From positions 1 through 25,803 of the IMG/VR virus record IMGVR_UViG_3300045988_092979: DNA of 25,803 nt; one strand, given 5' to 3'. The stretch comes from a virus. Its lineage: Duplodnaviria; Heunggongvirae; Uroviricota; Caudoviricetes. A model generated the notes under the pieces. The model saw nothing but the letters and a program-made list of their open reading frames with translations, was not told the DNA's origin and ran no database searches. The position numbers and the translations under genes were made by a program. Below are positions 1 to 20,646 of this stretch, piece after piece; the stretch's first letter is position 1, and every line of letters starts with the position of its first letter.

Positions 1-501
1 ACGGACTGGCGCATTGTGCCGAAAGTTCCGGTCGTTGAGCCTTTGACTTTAAAAAGCGGCATCGCCGCGCCTCGGAGTCCTGTCAATAACTGTGGAAAGC
101 TCACTGGTGGTGATACTTCGTTACCGGCTCCCACACCTTCTGAGCACGCCGCAGCAGTGCTTAATCTGGTTGATGACGGTGTTATTGAATGGAATGAACC
201 GGAGGTCGTGAGGGCGCTCAGGGGCGCATTAAAACACGACCTGCGAACGCCAAACCGTCAGCAAAGAAACGGAAGCCCGTTAAAACCACATGAAATTGCA
301 CCATCGGCCAGACTGACCCGGTCGGAAAGAATGCAAATCACCCGTATCCGCGTTGACCTTGCTCAGAACGGTATCAGGCCGCAGCGATGGGAGCTTGAGG
401 CGCTGGCGCGTGGCGCGCCCGTAAATTATGACGGGAAAAAATTCACGTATCCGGTCGCTGATGAGTGGCCGGGATTCTCAACAGTAATGGAGTGGAAATG
501 A
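1..501 (+). CDS. 3' portion of a gene that begins upstream of the window; product uncertain, possibly a replication-module protein
   Basis: Reading frame is open from nt 1 with no in-frame stop; the track ORF at 16 begins on GTG. Stop TGA 499-501 overlaps the next start (ATGA). Lies upstream of the tin/old-equivalent position in P2 order. Confidence 0.4.
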   Translation, partial: TDWRIVPKVPVVEPLTLKSGIAAPRSPVNNCGKLTGGDTSLPAPTPSEHAAAVLNLVDDGVIEWNEPEVVRALRGALKHDLRTPNRQQRNGSPLKPHEIAPSARLTRSERMQITRIRVDLAQNGIRPQRWELEALARGAPVNYDGKKFTYPVADEWPGFSTVMEWK

Positions 502-953
502 TGGCAAAAATTCACGAGGTAAAGCTGCACGCCAAATATTTTGACCTTGTGCTGGAAGGAAAGAAACGCGCAGAGTTTCGGAAAAATGACCGTAATTATG
601 AGCGCGGGGACACGTTGATTTTGCATGAATGGGTACAGGGTGTGTATACGGGGCGAAAGGTTGAAGCCCGGATAACAGATGTTACTGACCTGTCAGACTG
701 GCTGGAAGATTATGTCTTGCTAAGTATTGAGCTGCTTAATACAGGCGCATATGAGATTGTGAACTGGAAAGAACTTAGTGAGCGTGGTCTGGTATTCAGA
801 ATTAATCATGAAATTATGCATCAGCTCGGCCTTGCTGTTATGTATGAACCAGAGACGGGGATGTCTGGCGGGGCAATGGTTGCCACGGATGGAGCATGGA
901 ACTATTCAGATGAACAGATGGAGCGTGCACAGCAAAACGGGTGGCTTGGATAA
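498..953 (+). CDS. hypothetical protein, possibly ASCH/PUA-like (DUF3850-like) small protein
   Basis: ATG at 498 and 501 preceded by GGAG (489-492). N-terminal segment KLHAKYFDLVLEGKKRAEFRKNDRNYERGD resembles ASCH-type proteins by recall only. Stop TAA 951-953. Confidence 0.45.
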   Translation: MMAKIHEVKLHAKYFDLVLEGKKRAEFRKNDRNYERGDTLILHEWVQGVYTGRKVEARITDVTDLSDWLEDYVLLSIELLNTGAYEIVNWKELSERGLVFRINHEIMHQLGLAVMYEPETGMSGGAMVATDGAWNYSDEQMERAQQNGWLG

Positions 954-1165
954 TGCACAGAATACCAGGCGAGATACCGCACCATAAAACTAAAAATATC
1001 AAGCTGATGGCTATTGTTCACCGTCTACAGCAGATTATGGTCAACGAAAATCTGACGCCCGATGAGCTAGTCGGGTGTGCCGAAATAGTCCGGGATAATT
1101 ACGGGCGACTTAACTATATCGGTATCGGTCAGTCCAGAGTTGCGCCACCACCACGTAGACGATAG
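953..1165 (+). CDS. small hypothetical protein
   Basis: ATG at 953 overlaps the upstream stop (TAATG); the track start at 941 is GTG. No recognisable motif. Confidence 0.3.
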   Translation: MHRIPGEIPHHKTKNIKLMAIVHRLQQIMVNENLTPDELVGCAEIVRDNYGRLNYIGIGQSRVAPPPRRR

Positions 1166-1291
1166 AGAACGCCGCCAGTCGTGAAACTTGTTTTCAGGGC
1201 TGGCGGGGTTGAACAACGAGCGAAGCGAGGCGTTAGTTCAATCGATGATCATAAGCTTATGAGTTAAGCCTCGAGATTTTGTAGAAAGGGT

Positions 1292-1299
1292 TGTATACT
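1292..1299 (+). promoter_or_regulatory. candidate extended -10 promoter element (TGTATACT) upstream of the methyltransferase gene
   Basis: TGnTATACT at 1292-1299, about 25 nt upstream of ATG 1324; GGAG RBS at 1317-1320. No convincing -35. Confidence 0.3.
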
Positions 1300-1323
1300 G
1301 GACATCGTATGGATCTGGAGTGA

Positions 1324-2349
1324 ATGATGATTGTAAAGGTGATAGACCTTTTTTGTGGTGCTGGCGGATTAACTCATGGTTTGCAACTCGCAGGTCTTGA
1401 TGTCGTTGCTGGTATTGACCTTGAGGGGGAATGTCGATTTCCCTATGAAAAAAACAATAAATCAAAGTTTATTGAGAAAGATATCGCTAAAGTAACCAAA
1501 GAGGAATTACTGAAGCTATATGGTGATGCGTCTATAAAAGTATTGGCTGGATGTGCACCTTGCCAACCTTTTTCAAAATATACTCAAGGAAAAGATAAAG
1601 CGGAAGATAAAAAATGGCCTCTTCTTTATGAGTTCGAGCGTTTAATTCGCGAGGTATCTCCAGAAATTGTAACAATGGAGAACGTGCCTGATGTAACTAA
1701 ACATAAAGTTTATAATGACTTTTATTATTCGTTGTTAGAACTGGGATATTATGTTTGGGCATCAAAGGTTGATTGTGTCGAATATGGAATTCCACAGAAC
1801 CGTTCTCGTCATGTATTGTTAGCCTCAAAGTTGGGGGAGATTGAGTTAGTAAAACGTAATGATGTTATTTTGAAAACTGTTAGGGATGCAATAGGTGGTC
1901 TTCCACCATTAGAAGATGGTCAAACAGATCCAAATGATATATTGCATAGAGCCAGTAAATTAAACTCGATTAATAAAAAAAGAATTATACACTCTATTCC
2001 AGGTGGTACATGGAAGGACTGGCCGGAAGAACTTATTGCTGCTTGTCATATGAAGTCTAGCGGTAAAGGGTATGCTAGCGTATATGGGAGGATGTCTTGG
2101 GATAAGCCAAGCCCGACAATTACAACTCTTTGTTATGGTTTTGGGAATGGTCGTTTTGGCCACCCAGAACAGAACAGAGCTATTTCTCTTAGAGAAGCGG
2201 CTTTGTTGCAAACATTTCCTATGGATTATGTTTTTGTTGAAGAACAGGAAAAGTTTGTTATAAGAAGTATTGGAAAAATGATAGGTAATGCTGTACCAGT
2301 TGAGTTAGGAAAAGTCATTGGGCAATCAATAAAAAATCATTTGAAATAA
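1324..2349 (+). CDS. DNA (cytosine-5)-methyltransferase
   Basis: Canonical C5-MTase motifs in the translation: FCGAGG (motif I, AdoMet binding), PCQPFS (motif IV, catalytic Cys), ENVPD (motif VI), QNRSR (motif VIII), GNAVPV near the C-terminus (motif X). AT-rich relative to the phage backbone by eye. Confidence 0.9.
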   Translation: MMIVKVIDLFCGAGGLTHGLQLAGLDVVAGIDLEGECRFPYEKNNKSKFIEKDIAKVTKEELLKLYGDASIKVLAGCAPCQPFSKYTQGKDKAEDKKWPLLYEFERLIREVSPEIVTMENVPDVTKHKVYNDFYYSLLELGYYVWASKVDCVEYGIPQNRSRHVLLASKLGEIELVKRNDVILKTVRDAIGGLPPLEDGQTDPNDILHRASKLNSINKKRIIHSIPGGTWKDWPEELIAACHMKSSGKGYASVYGRMSWDKPSPTITTLCYGFGNGRFGHPEQNRAISLREAALLQTFPMDYVFVEEQEKFVIRSIGKMIGNAVPVELGKVIGQSIKNHLK

Positions 2350-2355
2350 TAAAAT

Positions 2356-2372
2356 GGCCTGCTTTGCAGGCC
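2356..2372. terminator. bidirectional rho-independent terminator hairpin between convergent genes
   Basis: Perfect 7-bp stem GGCCTGC / GCAGGCC with TTT loop; A-rich on the left (T-run for the minus-strand transcript) and T-rich on the right (TTGTGATTATTTC). Confidence 0.6.
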
Positions 2373-2378
2373 TTGTGA

Positions 2379-3059
2379 TTATTTCTCTAAGTATTCATTA
2401 TTATTTATATAATGTTCTATATTATTCGCGATTGCATCAAGATAGGCTATTACTTCTAATGAAATATTCTCTAAATCCTGATATGAAACATTTTTCCCAA
2501 TCTCAGCAAATGATACATTTCCATGAGATAAATCATTGCGATGCTGTTTAACGGTGGCTAATTTTTCACCATGTTTAGTGTGAGTGTAATCAGAATGGGT
2601 TGAAAATCCATATATTTTCGATTTTTCTTTTATTTCCTCTCTATCAATATTGCCTGAAAATATTTTCTTTTTGTTGAATGTACCATAAGAAATACCACAG
2701 GATATGCCTTTAGTAAGTCCGCCGATTAAATTATCGATGTTAACAGATTCATTTTTTAATCTTTTTAAAATTTCTGATTTTAGGTTTTTTTTAAGTTTAT
2801 CAAACTCTATGTTTCTATCATAAATAGTCTCATGTATAAGGCAGATAGCCTCTCTCATTGTTGATTCAATAAGGTTGTATAATAGTATATACACTGCACC
2901 CTTTAGAGTTTTTCGTGATTGAGATGTAATGGTGAACTTATGTTCTTTATTATCGGATGATATCAATTCCGCACCAGCATGCTCAATAAATTTTAAAAGA
3001 TCTAAATAGGCCAAGATTTCTCCTGACCTTTCGTCAAAATCCTCACGAAAACGATCCAT
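2379..3059 (-). CDS. HEPN-like predicted RNase/effector protein (R-x4-H motif); second gene of a two-gene operon
   Basis: 226 aa; C-terminal region contains KQHRNDLSHG, matching the HEPN R-x4-H signature. Start ATG 3059-3057 preceded by GAGGA; separated by one nucleotide from the stop of the upstream DUF262 gene. AT-rich. Confidence 0.6.
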   Translation of the reverse strand: MDRFREDFDERSGEILAYLDLLKFIEHAGAELISSDNKEHKFTITSQSRKTLKGAVYILLYNLIESTMREAICLIHETIYDRNIEFDKLKKNLKSEILKRLKNESVNIDNLIGGLTKGISCGISYGTFNKKKIFSGNIDREEIKEKSKIYGFSTHSDYTHTKHGEKLATVKQHRNDLSHGNVSFAEIGKNVSYQDLENISLEVIAYLDAIANNIEHYINNNEYLEK

Positions 3060-3060
3060 G

Positions 3061-4203
3061 TTAATCCTCTAATAGTTTGTCTCGCACATATTCAATTCGT
3101 TCAATTACCTTCACGCGACTATTTGCTCCGTCGGAGGTGGTTAATTGTTTGAATTCTTCTGAGCTTAGCCAATCTAAGTTTTTGGGGACAAGGTTAGGCT
3201 CTAGACGTAATGCGAGTGCAGCACCAACAGCGAGAGATTCAAATCTAACTCGAGGTGTGGATTTTGCAGTGATAGTTTTCTTAAAGCCTGCTGGGAAATG
3301 GTTTTCAACGAAAGACAGAACATTCGAAAACTCTTCTTTCATTGAGTTTTGTTCAGCTTCATCTATATCACTCTTTTCCTTCATGTAATCATTCAGAAAA
3401 TCACGCACGGAATGATCAAATTTCTTATATTTATCTAAGTAAGCAAAGAATCTCAATGTAAATTCTAACCGTTCATCTCGTTTTTCTTTAGCCTCAGATA
3501 AAGGTGCTAACTCCTTAAATTTAGATATTGTCGAGCATGGCTTAATAACCTGCGTATATAAATTTGTTGAGCCAAGTTCTGAACCTTTACGAACTTCCAT
3601 ATCTTTCAATATGTCACTACCAGAGTTAATTCGCTCAAAAAGATCCCTGCGGGTTTCTTCATTGCATTTAGAACTCAACTCTATAACACGCACAGGAATT
3701 CTCATGAAACGGCGTTGGCGTGATAATGGTAAATCTTGGAATCTGAAACCATTAAGAGAACTTAAAGATTTCAGATCTTGTAAAACTAATTCATTGTGGA
3801 TAAACGCATGTATGGTTCTAACACGCTGTGAGCCATCAACAATTTCAATCCGTCCATCTAAATCGGGATCTTCTGAAAAGACATCAGCTGTAAATATATA
3901 TGGTATAGGGAAGCCCAAAATTAAAGACTCTATTAATCTTGATTGTCTCTTTTCATTCCAAACAAAGTCCCTTTGATAATCAGGAACAAAGAGTTCGTTG
4001 GTATCATCCTCTAACCCGTTATGATATTTATTAACTAATAACTCAACAGTAAATTCTTTGGTCTCAAAGTCAACATCCTTTTGCTCTGCGCGAATTTGCT
4101 CTTCAGCCTCTTGTTTTATAACTTCTAGCTGAGCTAGGAGTTCTGCCCTTTTTTTGGCATTATCTTCATGTTCTAGTTGAGATTTTAACCCAATAATATC
4201 CAT
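3061..4203 (-). CDS. DUF262 (ParB/sulfiredoxin-like NTP-binding) domain protein, GmrSD N-terminal-domain-like, without a fused DUF1524/HNH nuclease domain
   Basis: 380 aa; FVPDYQRDFVW and IEIVDGSQRV match the two hallmark DUF262 motifs (YQRxYxW and DGQQR). Start ATG 4203-4201 preceded by AAGGGA. AT-rich, coiled-coil-like N-terminus. Confidence 0.7.
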   Translation of the reverse strand: MDIIGLKSQLEHEDNAKKRAELLAQLEVIKQEAEEQIRAEQKDVDFETKEFTVELLVNKYHNGLEDDTNELFVPDYQRDFVWNEKRQSRLIESLILGFPIPYIFTADVFSEDPDLDGRIEIVDGSQRVRTIHAFIHNELVLQDLKSLSSLNGFRFQDLPLSRQRRFMRIPVRVIELSSKCNEETRRDLFERINSGSDILKDMEVRKGSELGSTNLYTQVIKPCSTISKFKELAPLSEAKEKRDERLEFTLRFFAYLDKYKKFDHSVRDFLNDYMKEKSDIDEAEQNSMKEEFSNVLSFVENHFPAGFKKTITAKSTPRVRFESLAVGAALALRLEPNLVPKNLDWLSSEEFKQLTTSDGANSRVKVIERIEYVRDKLLED

Positions 4204-14807: not shown

Positions 14808-15716
14808 ATGCAGATTATCGACCTGAACCAGCTACCCGCACCGGATGTGGTCGAGGAGCTGGACTTTGAAACCATTCTTGCCGAACGCAAGGCGACACTG
14901 ATTTCCCTTTACCCGGAAGACCAGCAGGAGGCGGTCGCCCGTACCCTGACGCTGGAATCTGAGCCTCTTGTCAAACTGCTGGAGGAAAATGCTTATCGTG
15001 AGCTTATCTGGCGTCAGCGTGTGAATGAGGCCGCACGGGCGGTGATGCTGGCCTGTGCTGCCGGTAATGACCTTGATGTAATTGGTGCCAATTACAACAC
15101 CACGCGCCTGATTATCACCCCGGCAGATGATTCGACCATTCCGCCGACACCGGCAGTGATGGAATCTGACACAGATTATCGTCTGCGTATTCAGCAGGCT
15201 TTTGAGGGCTTAAGCGTCGCCGGGTCGGTGGGAGCCTATCAGTATCATGGTCGCAGTGCCGACGGGCGTGTCGCGGATATCTCTGTCACCAGTCCGTCTC
15301 CGGCCTGCGTCACCATCTCCGTGCTGTCACGTGAAAATAACGGCGTCGCATCCGAAGACCTGCTGGCCGTGGTGCGTAACGCCCTTAATGGTGAGGACGT
15401 CAGGCCGGTGGCCGACCGCGTGACCGTGCAGTCTGCCGCCATTGTTGAATACCAGATAAACGCCACGCTTTACCTTTACCCTGGTCCCGAAAGCGAACCC
15501 ATTCGCGCTGCCGCCGTGAAAAAACTGGAAACGTATATCACGGCACAGCACCGGCTGGGGCGCGACATCCGTCTGTCTGCCATTTATGCCGCTTTGCATG
15601 TGGAAGGTGTGCAGCGTGTCGAACTGGCTGCACCACTGGCCGACATCGTGCTCAACAATACGCAGGCGTCTTTCTGTACCGAATACCGCGTTGTGACCGG
15701 AGGCTCGGATGAGTGA
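14808..15716 (+). CDS. J: baseplate protein J
   Basis: 302 aa as P2 gpJ. Confidence 0.85.
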   Translation: MQIIDLNQLPAPDVVEELDFETILAERKATLISLYPEDQQEAVARTLTLESEPLVKLLEENAYRELIWRQRVNEAARAVMLACAAGNDLDVIGANYNTTRLIITPADDSTIPPTPAVMESDTDYRLRIQQAFEGLSVAGSVGAYQYHGRSADGRVADISVTSPSPACVTISVLSRENNGVASEDLLAVVRNALNGEDVRPVADRVTVQSAAIVEYQINATLYLYPGPESEPIRAAAVKKLETYITAQHRLGRDIRLSAIYAALHVEGVQRVELAAPLADIVLNNTQASFCTEYRVVTGGSDE

Positions 15717-16320
15717 TTCGCGACTGCTGCCGACCGGCTCATCACCGCTTGAAGTCGCCGCCGCAAGAGCCTGTGCGGAAATTGAAAAAACGCCGGTCAG
15801 TATTCGTGAGCTGTGGAACCCGGATACCTGTCCGGCAAATCTGCTGCCGTGGCTGGCGTGGTCATTTTCGGTTGACCGCTGGGATGATAAGTGGCCGGAA
15901 GCGACAAAACGCGCTGTTATCCGCGATGCGTATTTCATTCACTGCCATAAGGGCACTATTGGTGCGATTCGCCGTGTGGTGGAGCCGCTCGGCTATCTGA
16001 TTGAGGTGAGGGAGTGGTGGCAGCTCAACGAGGAGCCGGGGACGTTCCGCATCGTTGTTGGCGTGCTTGAGCAGGGTATTACCGAGGAAATGTATCAGGA
16101 GCTGGAGCGTCTCGTTGCTGATGCAAAACCTGCAAGCCGCCATCTGACGGGACTGGCTATCAGTTTAAGTACAACCGGCAACATTTTTGCCGGTGCAGGA
16201 TGCTATCACGGCGACGCCCTGACGGTTTATCCCTACACCCCGGAGGCCATTATTGTCGGAGGGGATTATTTCCCGGCCTCGGCCATTCATTTAATTGATA
16301 ACCTGAGAGTAAACGCATGA
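15709..16320 (+). CDS. I: baseplate/tail protein I
   Basis: Follows J with an 8-nt overlap. 203 aa from this ATG (P2 gpI is smaller by recall, so the true start may be downstream). Confidence 0.75.
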   Translation: MSDSRLLPTGSSPLEVAAARACAEIEKTPVSIRELWNPDTCPANLLPWLAWSFSVDRWDDKWPEATKRAVIRDAYFIHCHKGTIGAIRRVVEPLGYLIEVREWWQLNEEPGTFRIVVGVLEQGITEEMYQELERLVADAKPASRHLTGLAISLSTTGNIFAGAGCYHGDALTVYPYTPEAIIVGGDYFPASAIHLIDNLRVNA

Positions 16321-17834
16321 CAGTGAAATACTACGCCATTCTGACTAATCAGGGCGCAGCACGGCTGGCTAACGCGACGATGCTCGGCAGTAAGCTGAAT
16401 CTGACGCAAATGGCCGTTGGTGATGCGAATGGTGTCTTGCCGACACCAGACCCGGCACAGACAAAACTGATTAACCAGAAACGCATCGCGCCGCTGAATC
16501 TTCTGAGTGTTGACCCGAACAACCAGAGCCAGATTATTGCGGAGCAAATCATCCCTGAGAACGAGGGCGGATTCTGGATCCGTGAGATTGGGCTTTATGA
16601 TGATGAAGGCGTACTCATTGCGGTGGCGAACTGCCCGGAAACGTACAAACCGCAGTTGCAGGAAGGCAGCGGTCGTACCCAGACTATCCGCATGATTCTG
16701 GTTGTCACGAATACCGAAGCTATCACGCTGAAAATCGACCCGTCGGTGGTACTGGCGACCCGTAAATACGTGGATGATGAAGTCCTGGAATTAAGGCTGT
16801 ATGTGGATGACCAGATGAGAAACCACATTGCCGCACAGGATCCTCATACCCAGTATGCACAGAAACATAATCCGACATTTACCGGAGAACCAAAAGCGCC
16901 GACGCCTGCCGCAGGAAATAACACCACGCGGATTGCGACCACTGAGTTTGTTCAGGCCGCTATTACCGCTCTGATTAACGGTGCGCCAGCCACGCTGGAC
17001 ACACTGAAAGAAATTGCCGCAGCCATTAACAATGACCCGAAATTCAGTACCACCATTAACAATGCGCTGTCAGGTAAGCAGCCACTGGATGAGACGCTGA
17101 CTCATTTGAGTGGGAAGGATGTTGCCGGTCTTCTTGCATACCTTGGTATTAAAGACGCATCAACAACACAGGTGGGTTTAGTCCGGTTAACCTCATCGCG
17201 GGTATCGGGTGCAGAGGATATTGCAGCCACAGCTAATGCTGTCGCGCAAAACTATACGGACATAAAATCTTTGCAAAACAAAACTCAGGATTCAACTACG
17301 ACACAGAAAGGAATTGTTCAACTTACATCATCAAGGGTATCCGAATCTGAAACGCTTGCTGCAACAGCAAAAGCGGCAGCGATGAATTATGCGGATATTG
17401 TAGCTCTGCAAGGCAAGACTAATGATGCAACCACTACAAACAAGGGAATTATCCGCGTATCTGATTCCAGAACATCAACAGAATCTGGTGTTGCTGCATC
17501 ATCACTTGCTGCATCACAAAACTATTCAGATATGAAAGGGTTGTTTGGTCAATGCGGAATGAAATCTAGAAATCTCGGTGTCGTATACACCAACAGCCAG
17601 TCTTTCGCCATATTTGTAAGCGTCAATGCGGTGCTGTCTGACGGTAGTTCATTTCTGAGCGCCAACGTTAATGTGGATGGTAATTCGGCTAATTTTCGCG
17701 GCTCTCAGACAACAAATCTTGCAGGGCAAAGAGCAACTATCGCATTCATGGTTCCTGCCGGTGCGACCTATATTGTGCAGCAGTTTTCAGGAACAGTGTC
17801 AGATGTTACCTGGGTAGAGGTGGATAAAAAATGA
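16317..17834 (+). CDS. H: tail fibre protein H; constant part to 17144, currently expressed variable C-terminal part 17145-17834
   Basis: 505 aa; N-terminal two-thirds in the canonical H position; the distal part contains three tandem ~45-aa repeats and is AT-rich. A hix-like crossover site lies in frame at 17131-17156. Confidence 0.85.
   Translation: MTVKYYAILTNQGAARLANATMLGSKLNLTQMAVGDANGVLPTPDPAQTKLINQKRIAPLNLLSVDPNNQSQIIAEQIIPENEGGFWIREIGLYDDEGVLIAVANCPETYKPQLQEGSGRTQTIRMILVVTNTEAITLKIDPSVVLATRKYVDDEVLELRLYVDDQMRNHIAAQDPHTQYAQKHNPTFTGEPKAPTPAAGNNTTRIATTEFVQAAITALINGAPATLDTLKEIAAAINNDPKFSTTINNALSGKQPLDETLTHLSGKDVAGLLAYLGIKDASTTQVGLVRLTSSRVSGAEDIAATANAVAQNYTDIKSLQNKTQDSTTTQKGIVQLTSSRVSESETLAATAKAAAMNYADIVALQGKTNDATTTNKGIIRVSDSRTSTESGVAASSLAASQNYSDMKGLFGQCGMKSRNLGVVYTNSQSFAIFVSVNAVLSDGSSFLSANVNVDGNSANFRGSQTTNLAGQRATIAFMVPAGATYIVQQFSGTVSDVTWVEVDKK
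17131..17156. other. hix/gix-like 26-bp inversion crossover site (left), inside H
   Basis: TTCTTGCATACC-TT-GGTATTAAAGAC: 12-bp half-sites around a 2-bp core; left half matches the Salmonella hixL half-site TTCTTGAAAACC at 10/12 (from memory). Core TT is complementary to core AA of the right site. Confidence 0.6.
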
Positions 17835-18199
17835 TAACAATGATGAAGTATTACAAAGATGAAAATAACGTCGTATATGCCTACGATGCGTATGGCACAC
17901 AGGATGCTTTTATCAAAGAAGGGCTTGTGCCAATCACCAGAAGTGAGGCTATGGCAATTATTAATCCCCCACCGACTCATGAACAACTCATCCAGGCTGC
18001 TGAAAATGAGCGACAGCGATTACTGTCCGCCGCTGATGCAATTATGCTCGACTGGCGCACAGAGCTGATGCTGGGTGAAATCAGCGATGCCAACAGAGCT
18101 AAACTTTCGGCGTGGCTTTTATATAAGAATCAGGTTAAGGCTGTTGATGTAACAACCGACCCTGAGCATGTTAACTGGCCTGTCATCCCGGAACTTTAG
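17831..18199 (+). CDS. G: tail fibre assembly chaperone (Tfa)
   Basis: 122 aa immediately after H with ATGA overlap; ends in a WPxxP-type motif (NWPVIPEL) typical of Tfa proteins. AT-rich. Confidence 0.7.
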   Translation: MITMMKYYKDENNVVYAYDAYGTQDAFIKEGLVPITRSEAMAIINPPPTHEQLIQAAENERQRLLSAADAIMLDWRTELMLGEISDANRAKLSAWLLYKNQVKAVDVTTDPEHVNWPVIPEL

Positions 18200-18205
18200 A
18201 CCATA

Positions 18206-18250
18206 CTGGTCTTGCTACATCAATGCGCATCAGCAAGACCAGCTATTTTC
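18206..18250 (+). terminator. stem-loop/terminator after the tail-fibre assembly gene
   Basis: 11-bp perfect inverted repeat CTGGTCTTGCT / AGCAAGACCAG (18206-18216 and 18232-18242) with a 15-nt loop, followed by CTATTTTC. Confidence 0.5.
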
Positions 18251-18301
18251 AAACTAAGCAACATAGCCCTCCGCTACTCCTCCTGTTCGAAACGAACGTT
18301 T

Positions 18302-18733
18302 TCATGCCGCCCTTACGATATAATTAAACGCAATGTTACGAGGACGAATGGTTACATAATTAACCCCATCACCTCGTGAAGGCCCTGCAAATGAAAAACG
18401 GGAAAATCCTGGTTGGTTAGAAACAATTTGGTCATAGTTATTGATTGAATGACCAGACCCAATGTCGAAATTACCTCCGTAATGAGAAAAACTTGTACCA
18501 TCCTGCCCTGAAAGCAGGGTACGTCCCGCATCAATCCCGCGCCCATCATCCCAGCCACGGATAAATTCACCGCGTAAATCCGGTAATTTATTGGTGGGGT
18601 AGGCTTTTGCCAGTTTGGGATACATTTCAGAAGAAAATGCTGCACCATTGCATTTTAGCCAGCCCGTTGGTGGTGTTTCTAAGGGCCACGGAACGGGCAC
18701 ACCAACAGGCAGTGCAGAGCCTTCCCCCAAACC
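18302..18733 (-). CDS. silent, start-less alternative tail-fibre C-terminal cassette in inverted orientation
   Basis: Translation (…GWLKCNGAAFSSEMYPKLAKAYPTNKLPDLRGEFIRGWDDGRGID…) is a classic P2 H / Mu S-type fibre C-terminus. Its 5' end coincides with the right crossover site, so the track ATG at 18775 is not a real start. Confidence 0.7.
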   Translation of the reverse strand, partial: GLGEGSALPVGVPVPWPLETPPTGWLKCNGAAFSSEMYPKLAKAYPTNKLPDLRGEFIRGWDDGRGIDAGRTLLSGQDGTSFSHYGGNFDIGSGHSINNYDQIVSNQPGFSRFSFAGPSRGDGVNYVTIRPRNIAFNYIVRAA

Positions 18734-18747
18734 AACGTTTATGAAAA
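18722..18747. other. hix/gix-like 26-bp inversion crossover site (right)
   Basis: TTCCCCCAAACC-AA-CGTTTATGAAAA: 19/26 identity to hixL TTCTTGAAAACCAAGGTTTTTGATAA (from memory), conserved AAACC..GTTT inner positions, 56 bp upstream of the invertase start. Confidence 0.6.
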
Positions 18748-18802
18748 TGCAGAGACAACGGGTAACTGGCATCATCTCCGGTTTTTATTCAGGGGGATGC
18801 TC

Positions 18803-19396
18803 ATGCTTATTGGCTATGTACGCGTGTCAACAAATGACCAGAACACGGAATTGCAGCGTAACGCGCTGGAGTGCGCAGGATGTGAGCTGATTTTTGAGGA
18901 TAAAATCAGCGGCACTAAGTCCGACCGACCGGGACTGAAAAAACTGCTCAGGACATTATCGGAGGGGGATACACTGGTGGTCTGGAAGCTGGACAGGCTG
19001 GGGCGTAGTATGCGGCATCTGGTCATTCTGGTTGAGGAGCTGCGCGAACGCGGCGTTAATTTTCGCAGCCTGACGGATGCTATTGATACCAGCACGCCGA
19101 TGGGGCGTTTTTTCTTTCATGTGATGGGTGCCCTGGCTGAAATGGAACGAGAACTCATTGTCGAGCGGACACGCGCCGGACTGGAAGCGACCAGAGCTAA
19201 AGGTCGTATTGGTGGCAGACGTCCGAAGCTCACCGCGAGTGAGTGGGAACAGGCAGGACGGTTGCTGGCTGCGGGTGAATCACGTCAACGCGTGGCGCTG
19301 ATTTTTGATATTGGCCTGTCCACGCTCTATAAAAAATTCCCCTCATCAGCGACAAAGAATAAATTGTGTCATCCCTTAGCCAACCGGGACAAATAG
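18803..19396 (+). CDS. site-specific DNA invertase, serine recombinase of the Hin/Gin/Cin/Pin family
   Basis: N-terminus MLIGYVRVSTNDQ with the catalytic serine, and near colinear similarity to Gin as I recall it (…LVVWKLDRLGRSM…GRFFFHVMGALAEMERELI…GRIGGRRPKL…). GGGGG RBS upstream; the track ORF starts two codons earlier. Confidence 0.9.
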   Translation: MLIGYVRVSTNDQNTELQRNALECAGCELIFEDKISGTKSDRPGLKKLLRTLSEGDTLVVWKLDRLGRSMRHLVILVEELRERGVNFRSLTDAIDTSTPMGRFFFHVMGALAEMERELIVERTRAGLEATRAKGRIGGRRPKLTASEWEQAGRLLAAGESRQRVALIFDIGLSTLYKKFPSSATKNKLCHPLANRDK

Positions 19397-19455
19397 CCTG
19401 ACATCTCCGGCACAACTGAAAATATCACTCACCCATTAACCACGGAGTTAAACGG
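19397..19455 (+). promoter_or_regulatory. late promoter region upstream of FI
   Basis: Intergenic gap at the position of the P2 PF late promoter; elements not verified. Confidence 0.4.
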
Positions 19456-20646
19456 ATGAGTGACTATCATCACGGCGTGCAGGTGCTGGAGATTAACGAC
19501 GGCACCCGTGTCATTTCCACCGTATCCACTGCCATTGTTGGCATGGTCTGCACGGCCAGCGATGCGGATGCGGAAACCTTCCCCCTCAATAAACCGGTGC
19601 TGATTACCAATGTGCAGAGCGCAATTGCAAAGGCCGGTAAAAAAGGCACGCTGGCGGCATCGTTGCAGGCTATCGCCGACCAGTCAAAACCGGTCACCGT
19701 TGTTGTGCGCGTGGAGGACGGCACCGGCGACGACGAAGAAACGAAACTTGCGCAGACCGTTTCCAATATCATCGGCACCACTGACGAAAACGGTCAGTAC
19801 ACCGGACTGAAAGCCCTGCTGGCGGCAGAGTCGGTAACCGGTGTTAAACCGCGTATTCTTGGTGTGCCGGGACTGGATACCAAAGAGGTGGCTGTAGCAC
19901 TGGCATCAGTCTGTCAGAAGCTGCGCGCTTTCGGGTATATCAGCGCATGGGGCTGTAAGACCATTTCCGAGGTGAAAGCCTACCGCCAGAATTTCAGCCA
20001 GCGTGAGCTGATGGTCATCTGGCCGGATTTCCTCGCATGGGATACGGTCACCAGTACCACCGCCACCGCGTATGCCACCGCTCGTGCGCTGGGGCTGCGC
20101 GCTAAAATCGACCAGGAGCAGGGCTGGCATAAAACGCTGTCCAACGTCGGGGTGAACGGTGTTACCGGCATCAGCGCATCTGTATTCTGGGATTTGCAGG
20201 AGTCCGGCACCGATGCTGACCTGCTTAACGAGTCAGGCGTCACTACGCTGATTCGCCGCGACGGTTTCCGCTTCTGGGGTAACCGTACCTGCTCTGATGA
20301 CCCGCTGTTCCTCTTTGAAAACTACACCCGCACCGCGCAGGTGCTGGCCGACACGATGGCTGAGGCGCACATGTGGGCGGTGGACAAGCCCATCACCGCA
20401 ACGCTGATTCGCGACATCGTTGACGGCATCAATGCCAAATTCCGTGAGCTGAAAACAAACGGCTATATCGTGGATGCGACCTGCTGGTTCAGCGAAGAAT
20501 CCAACGATGCGGAAACCCTCAAGGCCGGAAAACTGTATATCGACTACGACTATACACCGGTGCCTCCTCTTGAAAACCTGACCCTGCGCCAGCGTATTAC
20601 CGATAAATACCTGGCAAATCTGGTCACCTCGGTTAACAGCAATTAA
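19456..20646 (+). CDS. FI: tail sheath protein
   Basis: 396 aa as P2 gpFI. Confidence 0.9.
   Translation: MSDYHHGVQVLEINDGTRVISTVSTAIVGMVCTASDADAETFPLNKPVLITNVQSAIAKAGKKGTLAASLQAIADQSKPVTVVVRVEDGTGDDEETKLAQTVSNIIGTTDENGQYTGLKALLAAESVTGVKPRILGVPGLDTKEVAVALASVCQKLRAFGYISAWGCKTISEVKAYRQNFSQRELMVIWPDFLAWDTVTSTTATAYATARALGLRAKIDQEQGWHKTLSNVGVNGVTGISASVFWDLQESGTDADLLNESGVTTLIRRDGFRFWGNRTCSDDPLFLFENYTRTAQVLADTMAEAHMWAVDKPITATLIRDIVDGINAKFRELKTNGYIVDATCWFSEESNDAETLKAGKLYIDYDYTPVPPLENLTLRQRITDKYLANLVTSVNSN

Follow-up and report, generated by a model that had tools for sequence, protein, structure and literature searches.

A predicted three-site tail-fibre switch in a P2-like prophage, joined from modules at its crossover sites and holding a Collar-type tip without a long-class assembly protein

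Introduction

This study concerns the tail-fibre locus of a viral DNA of 25,803 nucleotides (nt) from the Caudoviricetes (IMG/VR virus record IMGVR_UViG_3300045988_092979), hereafter called the window, by which we mean the whole stretch that was analysed. An earlier note on this DNA had described an invertible segment with two alternative ends for the fibre gene H, of which cassette A is followed by G, a gene for a tail-fibre assembly protein (Tfa), and the inverted cassette B is not. Among the described systems, the G segment of phage Mu (invertase Gin) and the C segment of P1 (Cin) are served by the same invertase family as the window, and in both of them inversion swaps the 3' end of the fibre gene. 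Mu and P1 have two crossover sites and a symmetrical arrangement, S-U / U'-S', in which each tip has its own Tfa, and this symmetry is what the window lacks.

The Pin/P segment of the e14 element (stfP-tfaP / tfaE-stfE-pinE) resembles the window in more respects: a Din-family serine invertase adjoins the segment, the crossover site (CCTTC[C/T]CCCAAACCAA) is nearly identical to that of the window, one cassette is of Collar type and the other is a non-Collar cassette with a short Tfa, and the silent cassette has a short leader open reading frame (ORF). A prophage of Escherichia coli NC22 (L006) shows the classical symmetrical layout, with a tip, a short tfa, tfaE, a Collar tip and the invertase gene between and beside two sites. 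In e14 and the NC22 prophage alike, two sites go with two tfa genes, so that each cassette has one, whereas the window has a third site and lacks a long gene of the TfaE type.

Two further systems are relevant for comparison. The Min system of p15B, the P1-like plasmids and the arrays in the P2-like prophages of E. coli E2348/69 and F95 have, like the window, more than two sites and more cassettes than tfa genes; p15B reportedly carries six crossover sites. The cassettes of Min-type arrays are stackable, site-bounded units of Collar type (~143-160 amino acids), and cassette B is nucleotide-identical to one member of such an array. These arrays hold 3 to ~10 Collar cassettes, usually with one long TfaE-like gene on one particular cassette, whereas the window has a single array-type cassette and no long Tfa, its partner being a non-Collar tip with a short Tfa. 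With phage P2 the window shares the gene order V-W-J-I-H-G followed by FI-FII, the N-terminal domain of H and the Tfa gene directly after H. P2 has no invertase and a fixed tip, and only the first 753 nt of our locus query match P2 records.

Tfa proteins bind the fibre tip through their N-terminal domain, their C-terminal domain being the conserved assembly part (PMC9608196). The asymmetric distribution of Tfa genes was not addressed in a published inversion survey (PMC9881135). Here, we describe the crossover sites and modules of the window's locus and compare its cassettes and Tfa with those of related prophages and plasmids.

Results

Three putative crossover sites, L, M and R, were recognized in the fibre locus (Table 1). 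A generic repeat finder returned none of them, their arms being short and imperfect; they were spotted by eye and then confirmed with a degenerate core motif, AWACSWWSGTWT, which has exactly three matches in the 25.8-kb window (in L, in R and at 18290-18301) against 0.06 expected. The sites are 26 bp long, with imperfect dyad symmetry around a 2-bp core, and L (TT) and R (AA) are inverted around the segment. Exchange between L and R at the central dinucleotides would join the constant part of H to cassette B in frame (...AGLLAYL, then GLGEGSALPVGVPVPWP...RPRNIAFNYIVRAA and the stop codon); the core motif and this fusion confirm L and R where the earlier note had implied its crossover sites. 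Its description of a two-site segment has to be amended, since the remaining core-motif match marks a third site, M, which had been overlooked. R is nearly identical both to the invertase-adjacent site of the NC22 prophage and to the inverted repeat of the e14 P segment, CCTTCTCCCAAACCAA (PMC12529663). M is a hybrid: in its inner half it is identical to the only site downstream of G in a prophage of E. coli EcPF16 (L005, 4141-4166), a site also present in one of E. coli 23AR0998 (L001), and in its outer half it matches the half-site between stacked array cassettes (for example L003, 2994-3019). With more than two predicted sites, as in Min-type systems, the locus is, as read from its sequence, a three-site switch of the Pin/Min type and not a two-site one.

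The gene next to R encodes a small serine recombinase (~190 amino acids) with an N-terminal resolvase catalytic domain and a C-terminal helix-turn-helix domain, which is the architecture of the Din family. Its residues 3-184 align with residues 1-182 of Mu Gin (3UJ3) over the full length (E 6e-94), and the catalytic-serine motif YVRVST was found. Given this similarity to Gin, a Fis-dependent recombinational enhancer plausibly lies within the invertase gene, in its 5' part.

The locus is a mosaic. Homology to the NC22 prophage covers 16317-17147 and 18513-19400, with 98% identity in the constant part of H and 95% from 18513 onwards, and in H it ends at 17147, inside site L. Positions 17140-18302 match the EcPF16 prophage with 98% identity, and positions 18290-18740 match cassettes of P1-like plasmids with 99-100% identity. 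Because the tracts shared with the NC22 prophage, the EcPF16 prophage and the plasmids end at the sites, every module joint falls within a few bases of a site's central dinucleotide. The constant part of H and the invertase gene evidently have a P2-like lineage as their common source, and A, G and the hairpin downstream of G came from a different lineage; A and G share 97.5-98% identity with the prophages of E. coli 23AR0998 and EcPF16, both of which have kept the hairpin as a piece of the A-G module. The simplest history is a swap of whole modules at crossover sites, through either the invertase or homologous recombination. B would have come in by recombination at these sites, as a unit bounded by them, or, equivalently, relatives with H, A, G, a site and a recombinase would have lost B there.

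Such a layout is found in the prophages of EcPF16 (L005, 2998-4802) and 23AR0998 (L001, 2958-4816), where H, A, G, one site and the recombinase occur without a second cassette. It is the product expected of a deletion between M and R, and inversion in these loci would join H to a six-residue tail, RFEQEE, followed by a stop codon. The layout represents either the deletion scar of a locus like that of the window or an ON/OFF switch of the fibre tip.

Cassette B is homologous to the receptor-binding tip of T4 gp37 (2XGF, E 1.4e-14), with a collar domain and a terminal NIAFNYIVR strand. Its coding sequence is identical (432/432 nt) to cassettes of four P1-like plasmids, and in one of these, p1337c, the copy of B is the tip presently fused to the fibre gene. 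A 95%-identical homologue, carried by an e14-like element, differs from it by 22 nt but by just 5 amino acids. Copies of at least 98% identity are found mostly on P1-like plasmids of ~96-99 kb. The unit 18290-18740 is complete, flanked by sites and identical to array members, and it is the single unit of this kind in the window. B is thus intact and recently acquired, not decaying, and the sequence does not support the earlier suggestion of a decaying remnant. Disabling mutations in B were considered as well and ruled out, B being identical to the cassette that is fused to the fibre gene in p1337c.

The positions reported earlier for A, G and B all hold, and the hairpin noted after G is real (Table 1). 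The asymmetry also stands: A has its Tfa, G, and downstream of B there are just about 100 bp, which contain the hairpin, and then the antisense strand of G. A hidden Tfa gene after B was sought on the minus strand of the gap (18200-18301) and ruled out, as the gap contains no minus-strand ORF of at least 20 amino acids and no match to a Tfa profile constructed by iteration from 119 Tfa ORFs. Across all 25.8 kb of the window this profile detected no Tfa other than G and no TfaE-like gene of the long class (~200 amino acids). G itself matches Caudo_TAP (PF02413) with an E-value of 1.4e-18 and 67.8 bits (cut-off 22.1), at profile positions 56-131 only; it consists of the conserved C-terminal domain and an N-terminal part of just ~45 amino acids, which places it in the short class. 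The window has neither one Tfa per tip, the pattern of the symmetrical switches of the Mu, P1 and e14 type, nor a long TfaE-like gene shared within an array, the pattern of the Min type. The earlier description, with nothing but antisense G behind B, applies to the product of L x R exchange; after a further exchange between M and R, G would lie in sense.

Arrays of bare Collar cassettes provide the context for B. P1-like plasmids carry 6-10 Collar cassettes head to tail behind the fibre gene, the unit running from one site to the next; in plasmids and P2-like prophages alike, the cassettes have a common Collar N-terminal part and the RPRNIAFNYIVRAA end, and only the middle 50-70 amino acids differ. 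The sharing of one long TfaE-like chaperone gene among all cassettes of an array was encountered in plasmids and in some P2-like prophages. pMS6198C has a single tfa (WP_000367942; 203 amino acids) in the whole 98-kb plasmid for 6-7 cassettes, and four more plasmids have one tfa each, always attached to the same cassette. An intact long tfa is lacking in two of the seven sampled full plasmid arrays, a tfa pseudogene being present in one of the two and no tfa in the other. Because arrays of such cassettes share one Tfa, it is evidently normal for B's class to have no private Tfa, and this is a property of the class, not a sign of decay. The Mu/P1 pattern, which had served as the yardstick for the asymmetry, describes those two phages and is not general: Min-type arrays and several two-cassette P2-like loci have one Tfa. 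The asymmetry of the window is therefore real but mostly ordinary, and the single true oddity of the locus is that the whole prophage contains no long-class chaperone to go with its Collar tip.

Two other features of the arrays were recorded. In two P2-like prophages, those of E. coli E2348/69 and F95, a B-like cassette is the tip fused to H and the sole tfa is antisense; the arrays in which the orientation of tfa was read include those of four P1-like plasmids (L089, L090, L092 and L094) and of these two prophages (L095 and L096, respectively). Where the tfa is antisense, the chaperone of the expressed tip may have its own promoter, the tip may need no chaperone, or the sequenced states may be dead. 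On the P1-like Escherichia albertii plasmid p2RM9976 (L093, 6017-7089), fibre gene and array together are reduced to one B-identical cassette and the recombinase, the state that repeated site-specific deletion would leave.

We then surveyed 79 loci from other species, annotated with profiles. They contain 92 ends of Collar-type ORFs, 68 of which are followed by a Tfa within 200 nt and 5 by another cassette, while 15 have neither and 4 lie at a contig end. The Tfa found after Collar tips have a median length of 198 amino acids (59 of 73 with at least 180), against 136 for the other Tfa, and short Tfa accompany non-Collar tips, as G does A. Since G is of the short class and the Tfa of Collar tips are long, the window lacks the chaperone class that is usual for Collar tips.

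The symmetry of the invertase-linked loci in this survey was tallied by manual reading of locus maps, not by an automated count. Symmetry was seen in about 13, a non-Collar cassette without Tfa in four, one mirrors the window and the rest are degraded; about a third of the non-degraded ones have a single Tfa. The four, all P2-like, come from Pseudocitrobacter (L030, 7274-7693), Pantoea (L031, 7256-8032), Photorhabdus (L051, 7068-7799) and Siccibacter (L068, 7341-8327), and in them the alternative non-Collar cassette has no Tfa and the Collar cassette has a long one, an asymmetry opposite to that of the window. Because of these cassettes, some non-Collar tips appear to need no Tfa. The locus that mirrors the window, from Rosenbergiella sp. 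YN46 (L076, 5662-8162), is an independent and intact case with two sites only; its order is a fibre-fused Collar cassette, a 117-bp gap with a hairpin, a convergent short Tfa of 149 amino acids, a non-Collar cassette and the invertase. Two candidates for further examples, each with two cassettes, one Tfa and an invertase, were rejected and treated as degraded, being orphan segments without the constant part of the fibre: Photorhabdus asymbiotica (L054, 5968-8995), with a glmS-like gene just upstream, and P. heterorhabditis (L080, 5977-9083), with a 64-residue Tfa remnant after the Collar cassette.

Three near-identical copies of the arrangement are known, namely the window, the metagenome contig OAZV01000014.1 (1 mismatch in 5,963 nt) and the NCBI assembly GCA_027227605.1 (3 mismatches in 10,474 nt). 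Searches of 5,426 complete E. coli genomes and of phage records, plasmids and viral contigs did not find it there. For the inverted state, a synthetic H::B junction was without match in the complete E. coli genomes.

The window as a whole is a P2-like prophage with ~96% identity, across 80-90% of its length, to prophages of many E. coli genomes. Portal, terminase, capsid and lysis genes lead to V, W, J, I, H and G, and 3' of G come the inverted ORF (18302-18775, minus strand), the recombinase gene (18797-19396), the sheath gene FI, the tube gene, the tape-measure gene and D. A putative defence-type island lies by the portal gene (465-4203), in the P2 variable region.

Table 1. Features of the fibre locus and other genes of the window (positions are those of the 25,803-nt stretch)
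Feature	Position	Strand	Description
H	16317-17834	+	505 amino acids; Pfam Phage_tail_fib N-terminus and Phage_fiber_2 repeats
H constant part (P2 gpH type)	16317-17144	+	Phage_tail_fib N-terminal domain, E 1.4e-62
Site L	17131-17156		TTCTTGCATACC-TT-GGTATTAAAGAC; central TT at 17143-17144; inverted relative to M and R
Cassette A	17145-17834	+	Non-Collar tip fused to H; three Phage_fiber_2-type repeats and a C-terminal domain of ~100 amino acids
G	17831-18199	+	Tail-fibre assembly protein of 122 amino acids, short class; start overlaps the stop of H (ATGA)
Hairpin	18206-18242	+	Terminator-like; 11-bp perfect stem, -18.2 kcal/mol, z -4.2 against shuffles; followed by CUAUUUUC
Site M	18283-18308		CTGTTCGAAACG-AA-CGTTTTCATGCC; overlaps the stop codon of B; same orientation as R
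Cassette B	18302-18733	-	Collar-type tip, 143 amino acids and stop; Collar PF07484, E 1.1e-14; ORF runs 18302-18775
Site R	18722-18747		TTCCCCCAAACC-AA-CGTTTATGAAAA; central AA at 18734-18735
Leader	18734-18775	-	MMPVTRCLCIFINV, 14 amino acids; own ATG for the silent cassette; outside the invertible DNA
Invertase, Din-family serine (Pin/Min/Gin-like)	18797-19396	+	Resolvase E 9.8e-52, HTH_7 E 1.1e-12
J	14808-15716		
I	15709-16320		
Sheath gene FI	19456-20646		
ASCH/DUF3850 protein	465-953		Cargo beside the portal gene
C-5 cytosine DNA methylase	1324-2349		Cargo beside the portal gene
HEPN (MAE_28990-type) protein	2379-3059	-	Convergent pair with GmrSD_N/DUF262
GmrSD_N/DUF262 protein	3061-4203	-	Partner of the HEPN protein

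Discussion

On balance we lean, if only slightly, towards the view that the locus is a three-site host-range switch of a P2-like prophage, a mosaic joined at its crossover sites, whose B state is likely to depend on a Tfa other than its own. In the sequenced state, H::A would be made together with G. Exchange between L and M would end H with RFEQEE and give a truncated fibre, and exchange between L and R would fuse B to H in frame and leave G antisense. A fourth state, reached by M x R after L x R or by L x R after L x M, would combine H::B with an unfused A and with G in sense, where G, with its own GAGGTG ribosome-binding site, could be co-transcribed with H::B. M x R exchange from the sequenced state would delete B.

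Since Collar tips are normally paired with the long class and the window has no such Tfa, the B-state fibres most likely depend on a long-class Tfa provided in trans by another prophage or plasmid of the host; tfaE is annotated in many matches of the E. coli genome search. It is less likely that they are served by the conserved C-terminal domain of G, and there is doubt that G could help, as it has a tip-binding domain of the wrong class. Without a long-class Tfa or help from G, B-state virions would carry no working fibres.

Several points weigh against the reading that we favour. Invertases of the Din family disfavour deletion and intermolecular reactions, and B might have been gained instead by homologous recombination in the conserved site and Collar sequences. 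L and M deviate from the best half-site consensus, and all three copies of the arrangement are in the H::A state, no inversion having been observed. As to the chaperone, five of the seven sampled arrays with an intact tfa have it antisense to the fibre gene, and one sampled array has no tfa at all, which hints that tips of this class may not be strictly in need of a co-transcribed Tfa. The Collar cassette of the Rosenbergiella locus is likewise without a long Tfa.

Some of these observations would also suit a B that needs no Tfa, a short Collar tip that would fold with host chaperones alone, so that both orientations would be infective. The five antisense cases include p1337c and E2348/69, in which B or a B-like tip is the one fused to the fibre; pT309.Ta3_1 has ~8 cassettes and no tfa in 16 kb; nothing of the Tfa type follows the fused Collar cassette in Rosenbergiella; and roughly 15 of the 92 Collar-type ORFs of other species have no Tfa and no further cassette downstream. 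A collar domain also occurs in T4 gp12, which is assembled with gp57A and without gp38. However, the 68 Collar-type ORFs that directly precede a Tfa, usually of the long class, form a tight linkage that speaks for a need, and an antisense tfa in sequenced states proves little, prophage and plasmid states not being selected for infectivity. Both pT309.Ta3_1 and pEC190329_2 contain truncated cassettes, too, and may be defective. Moreover, the gp37 tip of T4, which is homologous to B, folds only with gp38 and gp57A (PMC6957217). We regard independence of B from any Tfa as rather improbable.

A related proposal, to which we attach similarly low probability, is that bare Collar cassettes are chaperone-flexible, mobile host-range modules, which fold alone or with any Tfa C-terminal domain, including that of G, and which have moved between P1-like plasmids and P2- or e14-like prophages at Din sites.

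It is also unlikely, in our judgement, that B is functionless cargo, captured recently and by accident without a chaperone. The switch would then be ON/OFF in effect, or the prophage would be on the way to losing B, and B-state particles would be fibre-less or non-infective. The arrangement is indeed rare, its few copies being almost identical and all in the A state, and the complete nucleotide identity of B to the plasmid cassettes would have left no time for selection or decay. The prophages of EcPF16 and 23AR0998 have exactly the structure of the M x R deletion product, the invertase being kept with nothing useful to invert. Against this, B is intact and in frame, with complete sites on both sides, and E. 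coli strains usually have several long-class tfa genes in cryptic prophages. Helpers of the Tfa type are also said to work across lambda and T4.

Expression of the 157-residue ORF (leader and B, 18302-18775) on its own in the lysogen, as a chaperone-free receptor-blocking or exclusion protein, is very improbable: its own ATG lies outside the invertible DNA, as in e14 stfE, but no promoter-like site faces the ORF, the ATG is only 21 bp from that of the invertase, GGAG stands directly against it with poor Shine-Dalgarno spacing, and such a leader is a by-product of every switch of this kind. PinQ/PinE inversion of the e14 P segment yields a chimeric Stf that is reported to block T2 adsorption (PMC12529663), but this anti-T2 protein is the post-inversion chimera and not the silent cassette. 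In the window, the leader would join cassette A after inversion, with G downstream on the same strand, and a scan for a leftward promoter from the invertase side, for G or for the leader ORF, gave nothing convincing.

Taken together, the locus belongs to the known Pin/Min family as a minimal member with three sites, built from modules. It shows how tail-fibre switches are constructed, with complete modules joined exactly at the crossover sites of the invertase, and how one cassette has recently passed between a lineage of P1-like plasmids and a P2-like prophage. In its light, symmetry of invertible fibre segments should not be assumed, and the locus offers a clean natural test case for the need of a Collar tip for a long Tfa, a question that bears on the engineering of phage and tailocin host range by tip swaps. 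If Collar cassettes proved to be chaperone-flexible, the rule of one tip and one chaperone would fail for this whole class of tips, and single cassettes would be freely transplantable to retarget phages or tailocins.

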